Source of the DNA: Alphaproteobacteria bacterium
GTDB lineage: Bacteria > Pseudomonadota > Alphaproteobacteria > CALKHQ01
DNA length: 64,000 nucleotides
Assembly: GCA_965227515.1 (NCBI GenBank)
Contig: CBDDFZ010000001.1
Coordinates: 1,888,001 to 1,952,000 of the forward strand
Direction: 5' to 3'
A program made the translations under genes and the position numbers. Below the pieces are notes generated by a model that saw nothing but the letters and a program-made list of their open reading frames with translations, had not been told where the DNA came from and made no database searches. Shown here piece by piece: positions 9,819 to 26,703 of this stretch (positions are counted from its first letter, which is position 1; each line of letters begins with the position of its first letter).

Positions 9819-11138
9819 TTAGGTCTCCAGCTTGGAGCCGGTCTTGAGCAGGCCGGTGCCGGGGTTCTCCGGCTTCTTGAACGGCGTCTGCGCGACCTCG
9901 GCGTCCACCGGCGCGTCGGCGTAGGTCTTCGGCAACGTGACCGACAGTTGCGTGCCGATTTCGGCATAGCGCACCGGCACGAACGCAAAACCGATGTTGC
10001 AGCCTTGCGTCGGCGAGTACCACGCCGAGGTGATGTAGCCGACCAGCTCGTCGCCGTCGTGCACGTGGTAGAAGTCTGCCGGGTACCAGGTGATCGGCTT
10101 GCCGCCCATGCGCACGCCGACCAGCTTGTGGGTGACGCCTTCCTTCTGGATGCGGGCCAGTGCGGCCTTGCCGATAAAGTCGTCCTTGGTCAGGTCGACC
10201 TGCCAGCCGAACCCGACTTCGTAGGGGTTCATTTCCTCGTCGATGTCCTGCCCCCACGACAGGATGCCGGCCTCGATACGGCGGTGGTGGCCCGGCGCGA
10301 TGACCCGGATGTTGTGCTTCTTGCCGGCCTCCAGCACCGTGTCCCACATCTTCTCGGCGTTCTTGGTGGCGTCGCGCAGGTAGATCTCGTAGCCGGCCTC
10401 GGCGGAGAAGCCGGAGCAGGAGATCACCACCGGGCAGCCGGAGATCTGCGCCTTGCGCAGGTCGTAATAGGGCATGTCGGCCACGTCGTCGCCGAACAGG
10501 TCGCGCATCAGCGCCGTCGACTTCGGACCCTGGATCTGCACCGGCGCCACGTCGATCTCGCGGATCGTGACATCGAACTTTCCGGTCGCATTGACGCCCT
10601 TCAGATAGAGCCCGACGTCGCTGTCGGCGAGCGAGAACCAGAACTCGTCGTCCTCCGGGCGCAGCAGCACCGGGTCGTTGATGATGCCGCCGTCGGCATT
10701 GCACAGGATGACGTAGCGGCACTTGCCAGTCGGGCACTTCGAGGCCCGGCGGGTGACGACGAGGTCGACGAACTTCTCGGCGTCCGGTCCCTTGACCTGG
10801 ATCTGGCGCTCCACCGCCACGTTCCACATGGTCACGTGCTCGGTGAGGTATTCGTACTCCTTCATCAGGCCGCCGTCCTCGGGCCGGATGTAGGCGCGCG
10901 GGTGATAGACGTGATTGTAGACCTGATAGCACCAGGCGCCCTGTTCCTGGCTCAGGTGCCAGTAGGGGCCTTTGCGCAGGCGGCAGTCGATCAACAGCCG
11001 GCTGCCCTTGGCATCGATGCCTTCGTCGCCGTTGTCGCCGGACTGGCGAAGCTGGATCGGTACGTTGCGCTTCTTCAGGTTCGGGTTGTCGTAGATCGCC
11101 GCCGCGTTGTCGGCTGACAGTCGTCCGCTACCGGTCAT
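9819..11138 (-). CDS. Aminomethyltransferase, GcvT/DmdA superfamily (THF-dependent demethylase-like)
   Basis: WNVAVERQIQVKGPDA, GGIINDPVLLR, SGFSAEAGYEIY and RRIEAG motifs. Confidence 0.88.
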   Translation of the reverse strand: MTGSGRLSADNAAAIYDNPNLKKRNVPIQLRQSGDNGDEGIDAKGSRLLIDCRLRKGPYWHLSQEQGAWCYQVYNHVYHPRAYIRPEDGGLMKEYEYLTEHVTMWNVAVERQIQVKGPDAEKFVDLVVTRRASKCPTGKCRYVILCNADGGIINDPVLLRPEDDEFWFSLADSDVGLYLKGVNATGKFDVTIREIDVAPVQIQGPKSTALMRDLFGDDVADMPYYDLRKAQISGCPVVISCSGFSAEAGYEIYLRDATKNAEKMWDTVLEAGKKHNIRVIAPGHHRRIEAGILSWGQDIDEEMNPYEVGFGWQVDLTKDDFIGKAALARIQKEGVTHKLVGVRMGGKPITWYPADFYHVHDGDELVGYITSAWYSPTQGCNIGFAFVPVRYAEIGTQLSVTLPKTYADAPVDAEVAQTPFKKPENPGTGLLKTGSKLET

Positions 11139-18395: not shown

Positions 18396-18655
18396 CTACC
18401 GTCGGAATAGGGCGATATAGTCCTCGAACAGGAACAGGCGGTTTCGCCGCTGCCCGGTCAGTTCCCGCAGCACGCTGAGCGCGACGAAATCCGAGATCAG
18501 CGCCGATGCCGTGTTCTGGGTGGTGCCGATGAGTGCGGCCACCGCCTTCACGCTGACGATCGGCCGCGCATACAGATGTTGCATCAGCATGAGCGCGTTG
18601 TCCTGCCGGCGGACGCTGAACCGCGGCAGCACATCGCGCTCGATGGCCTGCCTAA
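18396..18655 (-). pseudogene. 3' remnant of a Fic family gene (C-terminal winged helix only)
   Basis: LYARPIVSV....IGTTQNTASALI..F....LRELTGQRRNRLFLFEDYIALF; no HPFxDGNGR motif; 5' part replaced by AT-rich DNA. Confidence 0.75.
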
Positions 18656-18775
18656 GGCGCGGGCGAGCAAAGAACAAGTCAGAAACACGTGACGAGAGTG
18701 GCGCGTCGCACGCGCGACGGTATTTAGATTGACTAAACGTCAAACAAGCTCCGTCCTAAGAAGTATAATTGCGTA

Positions 18776-19066
18776 TCATGTTCGAAATAGATCGAAGGTA
18801 TGTTTATCACGTGGCGCCCGTACCCTGTCAAAACATGGATGTTTTGTTTTCGTCCAACCAATATTTCCATTAAAATGACACCAGCCACCATTCGGCATAT
18901 TAACGCTGAGAATTCGGTCGCCGCACATGGGACACAGGTGCCGATAGCTTTTCGATTTTTCTCCATCTCCGACATTAATCAAAGCCCATGAATCGCGCAC
19001 CTGAACACTGCGACCTGACTTTAGGTGTCGCACATGCCGCCTCCGCTTGATCCATTCGTAGGTCAT
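18776..19066 (-). CDS. Small basic hypothetical protein, possibly Zn-binding
   Basis: 96 aa, CPMC...H...HPC; AAGGA upstream; ends TFDLFRT. Confidence 0.6.
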   Translation of the reverse strand: MTYEWIKRRRHVRHLKSGRSVQVRDSWALINVGDGEKSKSYRHLCPMCGDRILSVNMPNGGWCHFNGNIGWTKTKHPCFDRVRAPRDKHTFDLFRT

Positions 19067-19175
19067 AGGTGTTGTGTCCTTTCTTCACTTAGACGATTTA
19101 TTTGCATAGGTCGAGCCCTCCGTCGATGCGTTGCTTCCGGCTCGTGCGCAAGTTATTTTTGAGCCCACCTTGAGC

Positions 19176-19190
19176 GTTCGTTACGGGTTC
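19176..19190 (+). promoter_or_regulatory. Putative alphaproteobacterial LexA box
   Basis: GTTC-GTTACGG-GTTC (GTTC-N7-GTTC) in the divergent intergenic region. Confidence 0.45.
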
Positions 19191-19326
19191 GGCATGGACC
19201 AAGACGGAATAACCCTTCTCTATGGCGCTGAGACAAAGAATCCCAATGAGAAAAGTGCGATTATAGCGACTGAATGAGTCGCGACGGCACGACTATCTGA
19301 TTTACAAGTGCGAGCAGGAGATTTTT

Positions 19327-20475
19327 ATGAGTGCACAGCGCCCTCAAACGGCAACTGAGCCATCTCGTCCTGTCGATGTACACTATCGACGGTTGGATCG
19401 CGAGATCGTATCATTTCCTAATAGTATATCATTTGCGGAGGCTTTGCGGCGAGTATTAAGAGTGAGAACCAATAGCCTTCTCGTGCAGGACGATGTTGGG
19501 CAGAGGGTTCAAAGACAAATTCCCAATCGACTAGGTGATATTCGTTGTTGGAACAATATTGTTGCTGAAGAGGGGCGAGTCTTTGGAACTATTTGTCTAT
19601 ACAGGCCGGCTGAGTTACAGGCAGTAATTCAGGCTAGAGGGATTGACGGTGTTGTGAGTGCTTATCCATTATCTCAAATCGGCGAAACAAATGGTGGAGA
19701 TTTCTTGAGAGCTATTTCGTACTGGATGTCCTTCGAAGATCATTTTTATTTGATACAATCGTCGTCGTTGCAAACCAGTGCGATGGAGAATTACTTTAGT
19801 TGGCTTCTCCAACGACATGGAATTCTGGAGTCTGGGCAGTCTGTTGGCATGAGTGTTGCGTTAGATCGTGATGCTATTGGTGGTGATCTTGAAGATTTAA
19901 GCTCTCTAAACGTCGGTGGAAGTCTTGCGCCACCAACGGATGGTGATTTGGATGGAAACGAAGATTCATTAGTATCGCATCCAGGCGTGGATATCCAATT
20001 GAGTGATGGTTCAGGTCGTCGTGAGCGCCGCCGGATCGGTCGTGGTCGCCAGATCCTGCCAAATGCATGGGATTTGCTGCACAACGTAATGCATGACCAA
20101 AGGTCTTTGGAGGAGGTTGAGGACGCGTACCGGGACCTTCGTCGGGCGGACCCCAATGCCACCCTTGACGCAGAGTTGGAGTTTTTCGTCCGAATTCGGC
20201 GGAGAACGGACACCGGTCGGTCGGCTCGTCAGCGCGCCCTTCAAGCCATAAGCAATGGACTCCGTGATCTGCCTGATGGCACCGTGACTGCGAAGGGGGA
20301 CGGTGGTACTGTAAGGGGAAAAGAGGTTCGGCTGAAGATGCCGCGCCGCATCAAGCTCGCGCGTCCGCCGCTTGGCGCTCCAGAGGGTGCTCAAAGTTCG
20401 TTGCTGGACCTTGACCACGCGTTTCACGAAATCAAATTAGTGCATGATCGGTTTGTTGAGGATGGCAGAATTTAG
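19327..20475 (+). CDS. Hypothetical 382-aa soluble protein (candidate defence sensor)
   Basis: AGGAG RBS; long ORF in AT-rich DNA; no recognisable catalytic motif; 3 nt from next gene. Confidence 0.85.
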   Translation: MSAQRPQTATEPSRPVDVHYRRLDREIVSFPNSISFAEALRRVLRVRTNSLLVQDDVGQRVQRQIPNRLGDIRCWNNIVAEEGRVFGTICLYRPAELQAVIQARGIDGVVSAYPLSQIGETNGGDFLRAISYWMSFEDHFYLIQSSSLQTSAMENYFSWLLQRHGILESGQSVGMSVALDRDAIGGDLEDLSSLNVGGSLAPPTDGDLDGNEDSLVSHPGVDIQLSDGSGRRERRRIGRGRQILPNAWDLLHNVMHDQRSLEEVEDAYRDLRRADPNATLDAELEFFVRIRRRTDTGRSARQRALQAISNGLRDLPDGTVTAKGDGGTVRGKEVRLKMPRRIKLARPPLGAPEGAQSSLLDLDHAFHEIKLVHDRFVEDGRI

Positions 20476-20478
20476 CGA

Positions 20479-21066
20479 ATGCAAGTAAGAAAAGGAGGAT
20501 TGATTTTTGGCCTAGTCGCCCAGATATCAATTTGGGGGATCGCGGTATTATGTTTTTTTTACGTTTCATTTCCTGTTTGGGAAAGCGCCTCATCGAGTCT
20601 GATAACAGCATTATCTCTATTCACCGGTGCAATATTGCTGCGTGTCATGAGGCCTTTTCCCGTTATGGATTCGGACGGGTTTGAAGATTTAGAGGAAATA
20701 GAAACGCTTGAAAGCTCTTTGAGACATGCAATGAGAGCGCTAGCTTTTGCGGCAGCGTTAGCAGGTATTGTAATTGGCCTTTTAGTTTTCCGCAAATCGC
20801 TCATATATATTACTACAGGAATAACAGAAATAGATGAATTGAGAGGCGAGGTTTATTCTGGAGCTTTAGGATTTATGATAATGTTTATTGTCTATAGGTT
20901 GGTGTATGTTGTGAGGTTGGATTTTTCTGTATTGCGACGACAGGCAAAATCAGTGAAAAATGCGTATAAAAGGAAGCGAGGTCGCGAGGAAATCGAATAT
21001 AGACGCAAGAGTGATGATCTAGACTACTCATATCGAGATACTGCAAAATATCCCGGTCGCAATTAG
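20479..21066 (+). CDS. Hypothetical 195-aa membrane protein with four predicted TM helices
   Basis: Four hydrophobic stretches, acidic loop, basic C-terminal tail; very AT-rich. Confidence 0.85.
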
Positions 21067-21139
21067 GGTTACAAATCGTCAAGTCAAGTGTGAAATACCC
21101 CACTCCCCTCTCCCCCCATCCCGCCCTATAATCCCCCGC

Positions 21140-23356
<2,217 letters not shown>

Positions 23357-23487: not shown

Positions 23488-23630
23488 GACAACACGAGGC
23501 CCATAGCAGCTGAAATGTAGATGGGCTAACGGCCCTTGTTTGGTGGCGTGCATGAGTGGTCGTCCCTCAAGATGTCGGTGTCATACACGGAGTCGGGTTT
23601 GCCGCTCCAAGACATCGAGGAGAGACGACC

Positions 23631-24674
23631 ATGAACTACTATGCCGGGATTGACGTTTCTTTGGAATGGTCATCGGTGTGCGTTGTTGACGGCGCGGGCG
23701 GGATTGTCTGCGAGGCTCGTATTGCGAGCACGCCGGCGGGTTTGTTGTTGTGGTTTGGGTCTTTGGGGATTTCGGTTGAGCGGATTGGTCTTGAGGCGGG
23801 GCCGTTGTCGCAATGGCTTGTGCGGGGATGTAGCGAGGGCGGTCTTTCGGTTGAGTTGCTGGAGACGCGTCATGTTGCGCGGGCCCTTTCGACGATGCCG
23901 GTGAAGTCGGACCGCTCGGACGCACGCGGGATTGCTCAGCTGATGCGTGTGGGCTGGTTTCGTCCGGTTCACTGCAAGTCTTTGGCGGCCCAGGAGATGC
24001 GGGCCCTTTTGAAGGGTCGCGACCAGCTCCGCGCGAAGCTGCACGATCTTGAGATGCACCTTCGTGGTCAGCTGCGGAACTTCGGGCTGAAGGTAGGGCA
24101 CACCACCAGGCGCAGCTTTTCGACACGTATTTCGGAGCTTGTGGCGGGGCATCCGGTACTGGAGGCGGTGGCGGGGGCGCTGCTGTCGGCACGCGATGGC
24201 CTGTTGCTATCGTTCACGGCGCTGGACCGGCAGGTCCGAGCGGCATCGCAGGCGGACGATCGCGCTCGCCTGCTGATGACGGTGCCGGGCGTGGGGAGCA
24301 TTGTCGGACTGACCTACTTGTCGGGAGTGGACGACCCCGGGCGGTTTGCCTCGTCGCGCCTGGTGGGGGCGCACTTCGGCCTGACGCCGACCAAGCGCCA
24401 GTCGGGCGAGAGCGAGATGACGGGGCGGATCTCGAAGGTGGGCGATGCGGACGTGCGTGCAGCGCTTTACGAGGCGGCGCACGTAATCCTGACCCGGCCG
24501 ATCAAGGGCGGGTGGTTGAAGAGCTGGGCGATGAAGCTGGCCAGGCGAGCCGGCATGAGGAAGGCGAAGGTCGCGCTGGCGCGCCGGCTGGCCGTGATCA
24601 TGCACCGGATGTGGGTTGACGGCACCGCGTTCAACCATGCCGGACCGGTGCGCCCGGCGATGGCAGCGGCCTAA
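23631..24674 (+). CDS. IS110 family DEDD recombinase/transposase
   Basis: GIDVS, LEAG, KSDRSDA (DEDD); VPGVG; GLTP..RQSG serine motif; KAKVALARRL. Confidence 0.97.
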   Translation: MNYYAGIDVSLEWSSVCVVDGAGGIVCEARIASTPAGLLLWFGSLGISVERIGLEAGPLSQWLVRGCSEGGLSVELLETRHVARALSTMPVKSDRSDARGIAQLMRVGWFRPVHCKSLAAQEMRALLKGRDQLRAKLHDLEMHLRGQLRNFGLKVGHTTRRSFSTRISELVAGHPVLEAVAGALLSARDGLLLSFTALDRQVRAASQADDRARLLMTVPGVGSIVGLTYLSGVDDPGRFASSRLVGAHFGLTPTKRQSGESEMTGRISKVGDADVRAALYEAAHVILTRPIKGGWLKSWAMKLARRAGMRKAKVALARRLAVIMHRMWVDGTAFNHAGPVRPAMAAA

Positions 24675-25185: not shown

Positions 25186-25872
25186 CTACAACAACGTCGC
25201 CTGGCGCTGGTGGGGCGCGATGCAGGCGGGCGTGTCGTTGCGCACGTTGTTGACAACGGTGTCGACCTCGTAGGCGGTCAGCGCCTCATCCGGGAACGGG
25301 CCGATCAGCGCGGCGGCGGCGTCGCGGTCGCCATGCAGCCACTGGTCGTGGTCGGCCGGGTCCAGCATCACCGGCATGCGCGGGTGGATGTGGGCGATGG
25401 CGTCGCTGGCGGTGGTGGTGACGATGGTGAACGTCTCGACGGGCTGCGCATCTGGGTCGTCGCGGTCGCGCCAGTGCTCCCACAGCCCGGCGAAGGCGAA
25501 AGGTCCGCCGTCGGCGAGTGTGATGCGATAGGGCTGCTTGCCACCCTCCATCTTGCGCCATTCGTAGAAGCCGTCGGCCACCACCAGGCAGCGCCGGTCC
25601 TTGAACGCGGCGCGGAACATCGGCTTCTCCGCCACCGTCTCGCCGCGCGCGTTGATCGCCTTGTTGCCGATGGCCAGGTCCTTCGCCCAGGCCGGCACCA
25701 GGCCCCAGCGCAGCATGTCGAGCGCGCGGCCACCCTCGCGGTTCAGGCGCACGACCGGCGCGTCCTGGGTCGGCGCCACGTTGTAGCGCGGCTGGAAGTT
25801 CAGCCCGCTGGTCACGTCGAACAGCGTCCGCACCGAGTCCAGCGGCGTGGTGATGGAGTAGCGCCCGCACAT
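25186..25872 (-). CDS. SOS response-associated peptidase (SRAP/YedK/HMCES family)
   Basis: MCGRY start, RYNVAPTQ, WGLVP, INARGET, DGFYEW, IHPRMP. Confidence 0.96.
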   Translation of the reverse strand: MCGRYSITTPLDSVRTLFDVTSGLNFQPRYNVAPTQDAPVVRLNREGGRALDMLRWGLVPAWAKDLAIGNKAINARGETVAEKPMFRAAFKDRRCLVVADGFYEWRKMEGGKQPYRITLADGGPFAFAGLWEHWRDRDDPDAQPVETFTIVTTTASDAIAHIHPRMPVMLDPADHDQWLHGDRDAAAALIGPFPDEALTAYEVDTVVNNVRNDTPACIAPHQRQATLL

Positions 25873-25952
25873 ACCAGCAGTATAGGCAATGGCGGACGCC
25901 GGTTGGCGGCAAACTTCGCTGGCTCTGGCCAGCCGGTCGGTTACCGGCCGTG

Positions 25953-26468
25953 TCACCCGTCCGCGCCGCGCTGGCCGAACCAGCCATGCACGGTGCTGAT
26001 CCAGATGAAGACCATCGGGACGGTCAGCACCAGAATGGCGTTGGTCGTGATGCCATCCTCGATCGGCCACTCCGGATCGTAATTGAGTAGCCAGTCGATC
26101 AACGCGCCATAGAACAGCGGCAGCAGGACGTAGTTCAGCCATCCGGAGCTGCGCTCGAGCACGCGCACCCGTATGGGGGTGTAGACGTCGGCGTCGGAGA
26201 GGTGGGCGTAGTGGCGTCGATAGACCAGGCCCAGATAGACCGGCGCGGCGGCCCAGAACCCGCCAACCAGCCACGGCAGTGCCGAGAAAGGTGCCTCGTA
26301 GGGCGAGCGCTCCGCGGTGCCGATCAGCCCTTGCGCCGCGCCGGTCAGGGCCTGGCCGTTCAGCTCGGCCAGCACCAGGGTTGCGAACAGGGCAAGCGGG
26401 TAGACCACCGTCACCAGCGACAGGTCCAGGTACCACTTGCCCGCAATCGTCTTCGGCCGCCGTGTCAT
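25953..26468 (-). CDS. Hypothetical membrane protein (about 4 TM)
   Basis: Host-like codon usage; hydrophobic segments; start uncertain. Confidence 0.7.
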   Translation of the reverse strand: MTRRPKTIAGKWYLDLSLVTVVYPLALFATLVLAELNGQALTGAAQGLIGTAERSPYEAPFSALPWLVGGFWAAAPVYLGLVYRRHYAHLSDADVYTPIRVRVLERSSGWLNYVLLPLFYGALIDWLLNYDPEWPIEDGITTNAILVLTVPMVFIWISTVHGWFGQRGADG

Positions 26469-26703
26469 CGGTGCATCTTGGTTCATGGAACGGTGCGGAC
26501 ACGCATTATCCGGTCGGTTCCAAAACCAAGCGTAAAGGACGCGCGCGGGCCTGTGGCAAAGGTGCCAGCGGTGCCTTTCGGCCACACAAATCTTTGCGCG
26601 TGGCGGCGCTTCGGGCCATATAGGGGTCGCATTCCGGCGGCGCGGACCAAATATAACTGGTTCGCCTTCCAAGCACGTCCGCCAACCCGAACGGGGCCTC
26701 CGC

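Follow-up and report, generated by a model that had tools for sequence, protein, structure and literature searches.

Of the known abortive-infection systems, Rex is, to our knowledge, the oldest, its trigger and gating still being unresolved. [quoted passage not shown] RexA homologues have been reported to bind DNA, and the effect of RexA on the lambda switch does not depend on RexB (PMC11077077). Pairs described as validated Rex-like systems are Sbash gp30 (372 aa) and gp31 (165 aa, 4 TM), and CarolAnn gp44 (370 aa) and gp43 (178 aa), which these papers link to RexA by a weak DUF4747 signal only (PMC6426596, PMC6426606). RexABpp (PP_5643/PP_5644) of the Pseudomonas putida prophage P1 has been validated by experiment and, as described, needs both genes for defence; it is located downstream of a CI-like repressor, RexApp-His has a mass of 37.5 kDa, and in RexBpp, a 4-TM protein, residue 181 is the site of a mutation (PMC12894663). 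Kiwa comprises a 4-TM protein and a soluble DNA-binding protein, of which the former is described as the sensor and the latter as the acting component (PMC13434031).

The locus compared here with these systems lies in a window of 64,000 nucleotides (the whole stretch of DNA that was analysed) and consists of two genes, A and B, with the following features, in window positions:

18396 to 18743, reverse strand: Fic fragment (SoFic/Fic C-terminal part), by a PADLOC SoFic match
18745 to 21080, no strand: low-GC island carrying A and B, from the GC profile (47.5% GC, 2.3 kb)
19067 to 19326, forward strand: AT-rich intergenic region 5′ of A, presumed promoter region, from sequence
19327 to 20475, forward strand: gene A, ORF with ATG start and TAG stop, 382 aa, 42.7 kDa, pI 6.2; proposed RexA-like cytoplasmic sensor/activator
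20473 to 20481, forward strand: A–B junction (TAG, 3 nt, ATG), read from sequence
20479 to 21066, forward strand: gene B, ORF with ATG start, 195 aa, 22.2 kDa, pI 9.35; proposed RexB-like membrane effector
21140 to 23356, no strand given: uvrB, by Pfam

The original prediction, made from the sequence of the window, placed ORFs of 382 and 195 aa, 3 nt apart, in AT-rich DNA between a broken Fic gene and uvrB. The coordinates of both ORFs are exactly as it gave them, and the GC drop, the SoFic fragment, and the Pfam assignment of uvrB agree with the surroundings it described. GC content is 0.41–0.57 over 18750–21000 versus 0.62–0.71 on both sides (0.508 in A, 0.408 in B, and 0.475 in the island at 18745–21080, with 0.675 in the left and 0.661 in the right flank; the chromosome around the island has 67% GC), and the GC3 of B is 0.35, compared to 0.72–0.94 in flanking genes. 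Hence A and B are foreign in composition, and the proposed horizontal acquisition is supported both by this low-GC island and by the pair being GC-poorer than its surroundings in 16 out of 16 related loci. The left edge of the island is the truncation point of Fic, and the right edge is about 60 nt short of uvrB. The Fic fragment covers only positions 288–359 of the 361-position PADLOC SoFic model (6.8e-11), its frame being shut by stops just upstream, near 18755. The island also holds a small ORF; elsewhere, the same kind of ORF trails an SbcD/SMC operon.

An AGGAG ribosome-binding site is found at 19316–19320, 6 nt ahead of the ATG of A. A and B form one tightly packed unit, which is probably co-transcribed and translationally coupled. 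A scan for sigma-70-like consensus sites gave none in 19067–19326 (three sites region-wide vs. 3.4 expected, i.e., chance level), and a terminator scan, also at the chance level, recognised none. No prophage, integrase, or repressor was found near the pair in the window; the search of Rfam gave nothing at the gathering level (best match 16 bits vs. the threshold of 41), and no tandem repeats were found.

Gene A has no hydrophobic segment, hence its description as soluble. It had been said to lack a recognizable enzyme motif, which is consistent with zero Pfam, NCBIfam, or PADLOC matches at E ≤ 1; its only match is phrog_3482 (full length, 1.6e-24), labelled in PHROGs as of unknown function. 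A word search retrieved 16 relatives, the closest of which, P0002–P0012, share 45–60% identity with A, and a profile search retrieved 583 clusters at 50% identity, the typical length in the family being about 340 aa. Residues Tyr20, Arg21, Arg60, Gly87, His139, Tyr156, Trp159, and Gly327 are invariant or near-invariant in the family, and the window A keeps every residue invariant in the family alignments that contain it. Tblastn searches with A yielded no match in phages and Azospirillum as the only match in plasmids, and a genome scan with the close A alignment found nothing. No A–B fusion was found, the 576-aa match P0094 being an over-extended ORF. The A-like P0002 and the B-like P0017 both come from a 6635-base contig.

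The four hydrophobic helices and basic tail ascribed to B are seen as Kyte–Doolittle peaks (19-mers at 8–26, 39–57, 86–104, and 129–147) and as 15 Lys/Arg in 48 residues of the C-terminal tail, respectively; the TM2–TM3 loop is acidic and conserved. B has no Pfam, NCBIfam, or PADLOC match. It does match a profile made only from the ORFs that follow A at 13 other loci (47.5 bits, E 7.4e-17), as well as the Azospirillum partner (BLASTP, 3e-11), and its family comprises 177 clusters, all of them unnamed and without Pfam assignments. Tblastn searches gave no match for B in phages, nor for an alphaproteobacterial B in plasmids and phages, and the Atlas neighbours of the B from L012 are unnamed clusters only. 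PGAP names both A- and B-type genes “hypothetical protein.” A and B belong to a widespread family unnamed in current databases, in line with the suggestion that the pair is possibly undescribed.

A and B are conserved together, as obligate neighbours. A multi-helix ORF of 189–214 aa starts at −29 to +18 nt after A in 13 out of 17 related loci, and hmmsearch adds B in two more, L010 (1.7e-91) and L011 (1.1e-39, cut by the contig end); B is absent only in L013 and L017, both with a broken A. Hence a B homologue directly follows A in all 15 loci with intact A, in line with the proposed check that homologues always be paired, and no third conserved gene was found beside the pair among the related loci. 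In Azospirillum, the pair has the same layout at 25% (A) and 26% (B) identity to the window pair. The distances of A and B co-vary (r = 0.93, reached by one out of 5000 Mantel permutations), and the relatives are under purifying selection (dN 0.09–0.28, with synonymous sites saturated).

In order to place the pair among the described systems, we compared it with RexA, RexB, and DUF4747 at the level of sequence, profile, and fold. None of 90 A-family members matched the Pfam models of RexA (PF15969), DUF4747 (PF15931; E ≤ 0.01), or DUF6731, and B matched RexB in neither Pfam (PF15968) nor PADLOC. PADLOC, which holds Kiwa models, recognised zero families for A and B, so the check by PADLOC proposed along with the original prediction came out negative. 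As controls, lambda RexA scored 1e-97, and 9e-110 with PADLOC, and lambda RexB 8.5e-92, and 8.6e-61 with PADLOC. In hhalign comparisons, the A profile had a probability of 0.2–0.3% against both lambda RexA and a four-sequence RexA alignment, as did a 110-sequence A profile against RexA, and the B profile against RexB (single sequence and four-sequence alignment). A profile search of PDB sequences with A retrieved neither RexA nor RdgC, yielding only chance-level matches with E of at least 0.14.

The fold comparison used the Atlas model of P0015, a homologue 26% identical to A (E 6.4e-21), whose neighbours include DUF4747, DUF6731, and RexA clusters. For a DUF6731/DUF4747 cluster, TM is 0.54 by query and 0.64 by row over 250 aligned residues; for a DUF4747 cluster, 0.47 and 0.72 (aligned residues not noted); and for “Protein rexA” (PF15969), 0.46 and 0.55 over 207 residues; these TM values by query are below or near 0.5, and the model is that of the homologue, not of the window A. 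The reference for the RexA/RdgC-like two-domain fold is PDB 8TWQ. Taken together, pairing, genomic context, the rexAB slot (see below), and, as a lead, the fold neighbours of P0015 point toward the earlier RexAB-like reading, which is not supported by sequence homology to RexA/RexB or by a PADLOC match; its caveat that the analogy came without detected homology agrees with Pfam, PADLOC, and hhalign, in none of which A resembled RexA, or B RexB, by sequence or profile.

Five distinct phages with members of the A superfamily were inspected: Perceval, SfIV, and the Acinetobacter phages phi1_092021, Ab105-2phi, and Ab1656-2. The A profile aligned by hhalign with Perceval gp43 (99.7%, 7e-27), SfIV gp49 (99.7%, 2.3e-26), and an Acinetobacter phage protein (99.5%, 3.3e-23). 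In four out of five, SfIV being the exception, the A homologue is downstream of CI, the order being a CI/LexA-like repressor, an optional small ORF, the A homologue, and a membrane protein of 130–168 aa. In these four phages, the A-superfamily member thus has the cI–rexA–rexB position, i.e., the immunity-region placement characteristic of RexAB-type systems; there, the pair is co-directional with the repressor and therefore expressed in lysogens. The phage membrane partners are not detectably homologous to B (B profile vs. Perceval gp42, 2%; no match by hmmsearch). The depositor of phi1_092021 used the label “DefenseFinder protein.”

The related pairs are found in P2-like prophages, in integrative or satellite-like elements, and in defence islands. 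In 14 out of 16 genome loci, a phage, mobile-element, toxin, or defence marker lies within 6 kb (Pfam and PADLOC), PADLOC-recognised defence genes being present within this distance in only four out of 16. The genes found near the pair are P2-like tail genes (L003, L016), terminase and prim-pol (L004, L006), integrase (L005, L013), VapE or DUF5906 (L009, L010), RES (L002), NaeI (L008), Fic/PDC-S04 (L011), PDC-S52 (L007), a type IIG restriction–modification system with a helicase (L015), and a transposase (L012). In Azospirillum, Shedu SduA is directly 3′ of the pair (2.4e-171), and the window pair itself adjoins the SoFic remnant. The neighbourhoods of homologues, whose housekeeping nature would have spoken against the original prediction, turned out to be mobile or defensive, with prophages, defence genes, and integrative elements. 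We dropped a metabolic or enzymatic reading because no domain was detected and the contexts are mobile.

The likeness to lambda RexA–RexB is in the arrangement: a co-directional four-helix membrane protein comes immediately after a soluble one, and the slot downstream of CI is the same in phage members of the A superfamily. The window pair and its relatives share this RexAB-type layout (co-directional genes, a 3-nt gap, four hydrophobic segments, 15 out of 15 pairs). However, A (382 aa, or about 340 aa in its family) is about 100 residues longer than lambda RexA (279 aa), B (195 aa) is about 50 residues longer than lambda RexB (144 aa) and has a long basic tail, and the window copy lies outside any prophage. 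Compared by description only, the Sbash/CarolAnn type (“DUF4747/CarolAnn”) has near-identical sizes and the same gene logic and is prophage-borne, and a DUF4747 cluster is a fold neighbour of P0015; these systems, however, come from actinobacteriophages, and tblastn queries (A and two members of its family) gave no match in any actinophage. As for RexABpp, the sizes, which are all that was compared, fit: its soluble partner of about 37 kDa matches the typical A length (about 340 aa), and its 4-TM membrane partner of over 180 residues matches the typical B length (about 195 aa). PP_5643, however, reaches RexA by HHpred at 98%, while the A profile, in the shallower hhalign comparison, did not. 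A pore-like ring has been reported for RexBpp. Kiwa (KwaA–KwaB) resembles A–B in having two genes for a four-helix membrane protein and a soluble protein, carried on mobile elements (PMC13434031). Membership in Kiwa was ruled out because the gene order is opposite, KwaA (4 TM) being upstream of KwaB (DUF4868) while in A–B the soluble protein comes first, and because neither A nor B has any Pfam or PADLOC match.

Taking all this into account, we consider it fairly probable, by analogy with the described systems, that A and B make up a RexAB-type module of two genes for phage exclusion, on horizontally acquired DNA. What we infer from this analogy is the fold of the window A, its contact with B, the trigger, permeabilisation of the membrane, and activity against phages in this host. 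A would be a cytoplasmic protein of a RexA/DUF4747-like fold, probably a dimer and probably DNA-binding, that might sense a phage product or a phage DNA–protein intermediate. It might then engage the cytoplasmic face of B, the likely contacts being the acidic TM2–TM3 loop and/or the basic C-terminal tail. B, as a putative oligomeric four-helix protein of the inner membrane, would open or damage the membrane, so that the membrane potential and ATP supply would collapse and the growth of the infected cell and the phage would stop.

The same defence pair could act with the roles reversed, in the manner of Kiwa or Butters: B would sense or anchor, and A would be a DNA-binding effector blocking phage replication or late transcription, the cell not being killed. 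Precedents are reported for sensing by the membrane protein and action by the soluble one in Kiwa (PMC13434031), for gp30 as the sole effector in Butters (PMC7542560, PMC12894663), and for DNA binding by RexA homologues (PMC11077077); moreover, no single membrane partner comes close to A in conservation and spread, the phage partners being non-homologous to B. On the other hand, the soluble gene comes first, as in Rex and unlike Kiwa, neither A nor B has a PADLOC match of any kind, and the effector is the membrane protein in three out of five described Rex-like systems (PMC12894663), and we regard the reversal as unlikely. It is quite improbable that the pair is inert cargo, left behind by a prophage or defence island that has decayed, and that, having once tuned the lysogeny–lysis switch of its phage (the second role of RexA), it is useless here: both ORFs have full length (382 aa in A vs. 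369–383 aa in its closest relatives, and 195 aa in B vs. 200 aa), A retains every family-invariant residue, the ribosome-binding site and the close coupling of the two genes are preserved, and many pairs are outside prophages and adjoin defence genes. Such decay would nevertheless fit the patchwork of remnants in the island (the Fic fragment and the small ORF of the SbcD/SMC-operon kind), the absence of a prophage, integrase, or repressor nearby, the promoter and terminator scans that recognised none, the decayed A copies in other genomes (L013 and L017), and the reported modulation of the lambda switch by RexA without RexB (PMC11077077).

A role other than defence, as an addiction or toxin–antitoxin-like pair or as a module by which mobile elements bring about holin-like lysis or membrane stress, seems very improbable. 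The B-type multi-helix proteins are indeed holin-sized, one Acinetobacter partner having been labelled “holin-x” by its depositor, the SfIV pair adjoins lysis genes, and a RES toxin is adjacent to the pair in L002; but four out of five phages carry the pair in the immunity region, outside the lysis cassette, separate genes for holin, endolysin, and spanin are present in phages that carry the pair, and neither gene of the pair showed a known toxin or antitoxin domain (Pfam, NCBIfam, PADLOC). Finally, it is possible, although doubtful, that A and B are not diverged RexAB but an independent, widespread defence family that has converged on the Rex architecture and taken over the rexAB slot of temperate phages (Escherichia, Acinetobacter) and P2-like prophages (Alphaproteobacteria). 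Such a family might use another logic, e.g., with B sensing at the membrane and A clamping DNA, and the occurrence of A with unrelated membrane partners across lineages would then mean a modular exchange of sensors and effectors, undescribed for Rex.

With 583 clusters of A and 177 of B, the family is large, yet invisible to Pfam, NCBIfam, and PADLOC, and under the preferred RexAB-type reading it would be a blind spot of defence-system finders, the uvrB-proximal island of the window likely being a small, decaying defence hotspot. Of 5426 complete genomes, 43 carry the Perceval-type pair, LF82 among them, and the E. coli members of the family would offer a tractable model, namely, a second Rex-type system, independent in sequence, within the classical host.

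The positions originally given for A and B, the soluble and the membrane protein of the proposed pair, were recovered exactly.

Features of the low-GC island and its left edge
18396–18743, minus strand, C-terminal fragment of a SoFic-type Fic protein (PADLOC SoFic model positions 288–359 of 361, 6.8e-11)
18776–19066, minus strand, 96-aa ORF with a CxxC...C/H pattern
19327–20475, plus strand, A (382-aa ORF)
20479–21066, plus strand, B (195-aa ORF)

As read from the sequence, three bases separate the TAG of A from the ATG of B, and AGGAG lies 6 nt 5' of the ATG of A. GC content is 0.508 in A, 0.408 in B, and 0.475 over 18745–21080, against 0.675 and 0.661 in the flanks, and GC3 of B is 0.35 against 0.72–0.94 in the adjacent genes; the DNA of the pair is compositionally foreign. 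The pair abuts the SoFic remnant, rightly described as a broken Fic gene, as the ORF retains no more than the final 72 positions of the SoFic model. Stops close its frame near 18755, the same point at which GC drops, and the 5' three quarters of the gene seem to have been replaced by low-GC DNA. B has four hydrophobic 19-mers (8–26, 39–57, 86–104, and 129–147), an acidic TM2–TM3 loop (8 D/E per 28 residues), and a basic tail (15 K/R per 48 residues), a pattern that, by the positive-inside rule, would place both termini and the central loop in the cytoplasm.

A matches nothing in Pfam, NCBIfam, or PADLOC at E ≤ 1 and has one PHROG match, phrog_3482 (function unknown; full length, 1.6e-24), and B has no significant match in Pfam, NCBIfam, PADLOC, or PHROGs. 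A word-based search returned one relative of B (48% identity) and 16 of A (24–60%); Pfam domains are absent from all 16. A profile of 14 A sequences, searched exhaustively, matched 583 representative clusters at E ≤ 1e-3 (263 of them at ≤1e-10 and 78 at ≤1e-30), mostly of 320–360 aa. The clusters matched by a B-type profile number 177; all are labelled "hypothetical" and lack Pfam domains. Fifty-eight full-length A members, picked among the 150 matches listed after fragments were dropped, share invariant Y20 and R60 and near-invariant R21, G87, H139, Y156, W159, and G327; Pfam RexA, DUF4747, and DUF6731 match none of the 58, nor any of 32 further, more distant members. P0094, a 576-aa match to the A profile, looked like a fusion: its 240-residue N-terminal extension matches neither a family nor the B profile, and a plausible Met lies ahead of the conserved (V/L)(H/R)YR(K/R) start motif. 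Probably it is no fusion and the ORF was over-called.

The Azospirillum lipoferum 4B plasmid AZO_p1 (locus L001) carries an A homologue (24.7% identity) whose stop overlaps the start of the next gene, a 189-aa multi-helix ORF homologous to B (BLASTP 3e-11), and a scan of species-representative genomes added 16 loci (L002–L017), chiefly from Alphaproteobacteria. At 13 out of 17 loci, a membrane ORF of 189–214 aa lies −29 to +18 nt 3' of A, and a profile of these 13 ORFs, built without the window sequence, recognizes the window B (47.5 bits, E 7.4e-17). The same kind of profile detected B at L010 (1.7e-91), where the ORF filter had missed it, and a B fragment at the contig end of L011 (1.1e-39). 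The pairing of homologues, singled out for checking in the original prediction, was thus observed in all 15 loci where A is intact. Distances between A proteins correlate with those between B proteins (r = 0.93, reached by one of 5000 permutations; 13 loci, leaving out L010, L011, L013, L017, and L006, a near-duplicate of L004), which for adjacent genes shows co-inheritance and is not proof of A–B interaction. Across loci, no further conserved gene surrounds the pair, the exceptions being three near-identical Novosphingobium/Sphingobium elements and a repressor in two phages.

The GC content of the pair is below that of its locus in all 16 genome loci. The context scan (143 ORFs of ≥90 aa, picked greedily without overlap, at most 6 kb from the pair, compared with Pfam and PADLOC) identified a phage, mobile-element, toxin, or defence marker in 14 of these: P2-like tail modules (L003, L016), a terminase and a primase-polymerase (L004 and L006, the same element), an integrase with AAA_25 (L005), VapE (L009), a DUF5906 primase-helicase (L010), a RES toxin (L002), the NaeI restriction enzyme (L008), Fic/PDC-S04 with an HTH (L011), PDC-S52 (L007), a DDE transposase (L012), transposases with an integrase (L013), and the genes of L015; L014 and L017 gave nothing informative. 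Defence genes recognized by PADLOC occur in four out of 16. L015 (1316–16221) is a clear defence island: a type IIG restriction-methyltransferase lies to one side of the A–B pair, and a DNA methylase and a DpdJ/MkoA-like helicase of 1473 aa lie to its other side. On AZO_p1, a full-length, low-GC Shedu SduA gene (9890–11116; PADLOC 2.4e-171) lies approximately 300 nt downstream of the pair as its immediate neighbour, in a stretch for which the PLSDB gene table holds no features.

Searches by tblastn with two central A-family members revealed distant homologues in temperate phages, and hhalign matched the A profile to Escherichia phage Perceval gp43 (99.7%, 7e-27, 311 columns), Shigella phage SfIV gp49 (99.7%, 2.3e-26), and Acinetobacter phage phi1_092021 CDS0052 (99.5%, 3.3e-23). 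In Perceval, CII and a small ORF are followed, divergently, by the CI repressor, the A homologue (340 aa), a "transmembrane protein" (168 aa), and kil-gam-bet-exo; this is the cI-rexA-rexB arrangement of lambda, shared by Klebsiella and Hafnia phages with true RexAB. Three Acinetobacter phages carry a repressor, a small ORF, the A homologue, and a membrane protein of 130–167 aa. Thus, the A homologue occupies the rexAB slot in four out of five distinct phages inspected, the exception being SfIV (L020, 2405–4324), where Q and the lysis genes flank the pair, which adjoins a transposase; the short membrane ORF gp48 (108 aa) after gp49 overlaps the end of the transposase gene, whose insertion may have truncated it. 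The phage membrane partners have no detectable relation to B. One depositor labelled the Acinetobacter phage phi1_092021 protein "DefenseFinder protein"; PADLOC gives no match for it. The Perceval-type pair occurs at ≥99% identity in 43 out of 5426 complete E. coli genomes, where PGAP names both genes hypothetical.

The proposed link to RexA and RexB is seen in gene position; sequence methods detect none. PADLOC and Pfam, by which the lambda proteins RexA and RexB are recognized at 1e-61 to 1e-110, give no match for A, B, or the phage homologues. By hhalign, the A profile against lambda RexA or a four-sequence RexA alignment, and the 110-sequence A profile, gave 0.2–0.3%, as did B against RexB, in a test weaker than HHpred because the phage collection has no more than four distinct RexA sequences, which leaves the RexA alignment shallow, and secondary structure was not used. 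A moderately strong lead to the fold of A comes from the Atlas model (pTM 0.74) of P0015, a Desulfocurvus homologue (E 6.4e-21, 26% identity, 97% coverage): behind unnamed clusters, its neighbours include a "DUF4747 family protein" (TM 0.47 by query, 0.72 by row), an entry with DUF6731 16% and DUF4747 15% (0.54/0.64, 250 residues aligned), and "Protein rexA" (PF15969 in 71% of members; 0.46/0.55, 207 residues aligned).

According to published reports, Sbash gp30/gp31 and CarolAnn gp44/gp43 are validated Rex-like defences with a soluble protein of 370–372 aa, in which the DUF4747 signal is only weak, and a 4-TM protein of 165–178 aa (PMC6426596, PMC6426606); RexA homologues are reported to dimerize and bind DNA, and the RexA crystal structure to resemble RdgC (PMC11077077). 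The best-conserved segments of B, TM2 and the TM2–TM3 loop (mean top-residue frequency 0.81 and 0.68), fit the reported inactivation of Sbash gp31 by central-loop substitutions (PMC6426596). The sizes of RexABpp, the Rex-like system of Pseudomonas putida prophage P1, are very like those of the A/B family. A "DUF4747/CarolAnn prophage system" is listed among known immune operons in a 2026 paper (PMC13373217), and no description of the A/B family was found in the literature searched, whose coverage leaves out most subscription journals. The most fitting classification of the pair is a new family of RexAB type, outside the RexA and RexB families; the type itself is known already, and the family is large, unannotated, and has tractable E. 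coli members.

A and B form a conserved pair that is mobile, associated with phages and defence genes, and found in the rexAB slot, and the foreign GC, conserved pairing, mobile and defence contexts, and phage position support the original reading of a RexAB-like, horizontally acquired pair. By analogy with RexAB, we consider it reasonably probable that A senses infection and B acts on the membrane: A would be a cytoplasmic RexA-like sensor that upon infection engages the cytoplasmic face of B, and B oligomers would then permeabilize or depolarize the membrane and arrest the cell. The roles might be reversed, as in Kiwa or in Butters gp30/gp31, where the soluble protein is reported as the effector (PMC7542560), an arrangement we regard as unlikely here.

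That the pair is inert remnant cargo or a lysogeny-switch modulator is improbable, and a non-defence membrane module is very improbable. Relatives have dN of 0.09–0.28 with synonymous sites saturated, indicating purifying selection on their A and B genes. At L013 (8037–8876), A is cut to a 279-aa ORF amid Mutator and Mu-type transposases and an integrase, and at L017 (8001–8384) only residues 3–129 of A remain, both without a B gene, so that loss of the pair occurs besides its gain. The membrane partner of Acinetobacter phage Ab1656-2 (L027, 3351–3854) is annotated by its depositor as "holin-x," lies in the immunity region, and is probably a RexB-like partner under a misleading label. Conserved housekeeping contexts, named beforehand as counter-evidence to a RexAB-like system, were not seen over the loci.

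The 96-aa ORF has no family match; its homologues (45–48% identity) occur on 32 alphaproteobacterial plasmids, and on Rhodovulum pRGUI03 one lies directly 3' of an operon of SbcD and an SMC-family ATPase with a WYL regulator upstream. The window copy stands alone, a second remnant within the island. Imperfect 20-nt direct repeats (70–75% identity) are present at 18722–18741, 19895–19914, and 21061–21080, the outer two at the island edges, i.e., the Fic truncation point and the stop of B; they may be chance matches. The window has no prophage; uvrB lies to the right of the pair, and the wider neighbourhood is ordinary chromosomal metabolism.

Features downstream of uvrB
23556–24674, plus strand, IS110-family transposase (DEDD_Tnp_IS110 and Transposase_20), directly downstream of uvrB
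25186–26502, minus strand, 438-aa ORF with an SRAP (SOS-response-associated peptidase) domain on residues 211–420 only

The transposase, too, points to uptake of mobile DNA around uvrB. The DNA of the 438-aa ORF is high-GC, and its given start is probably over-extended.
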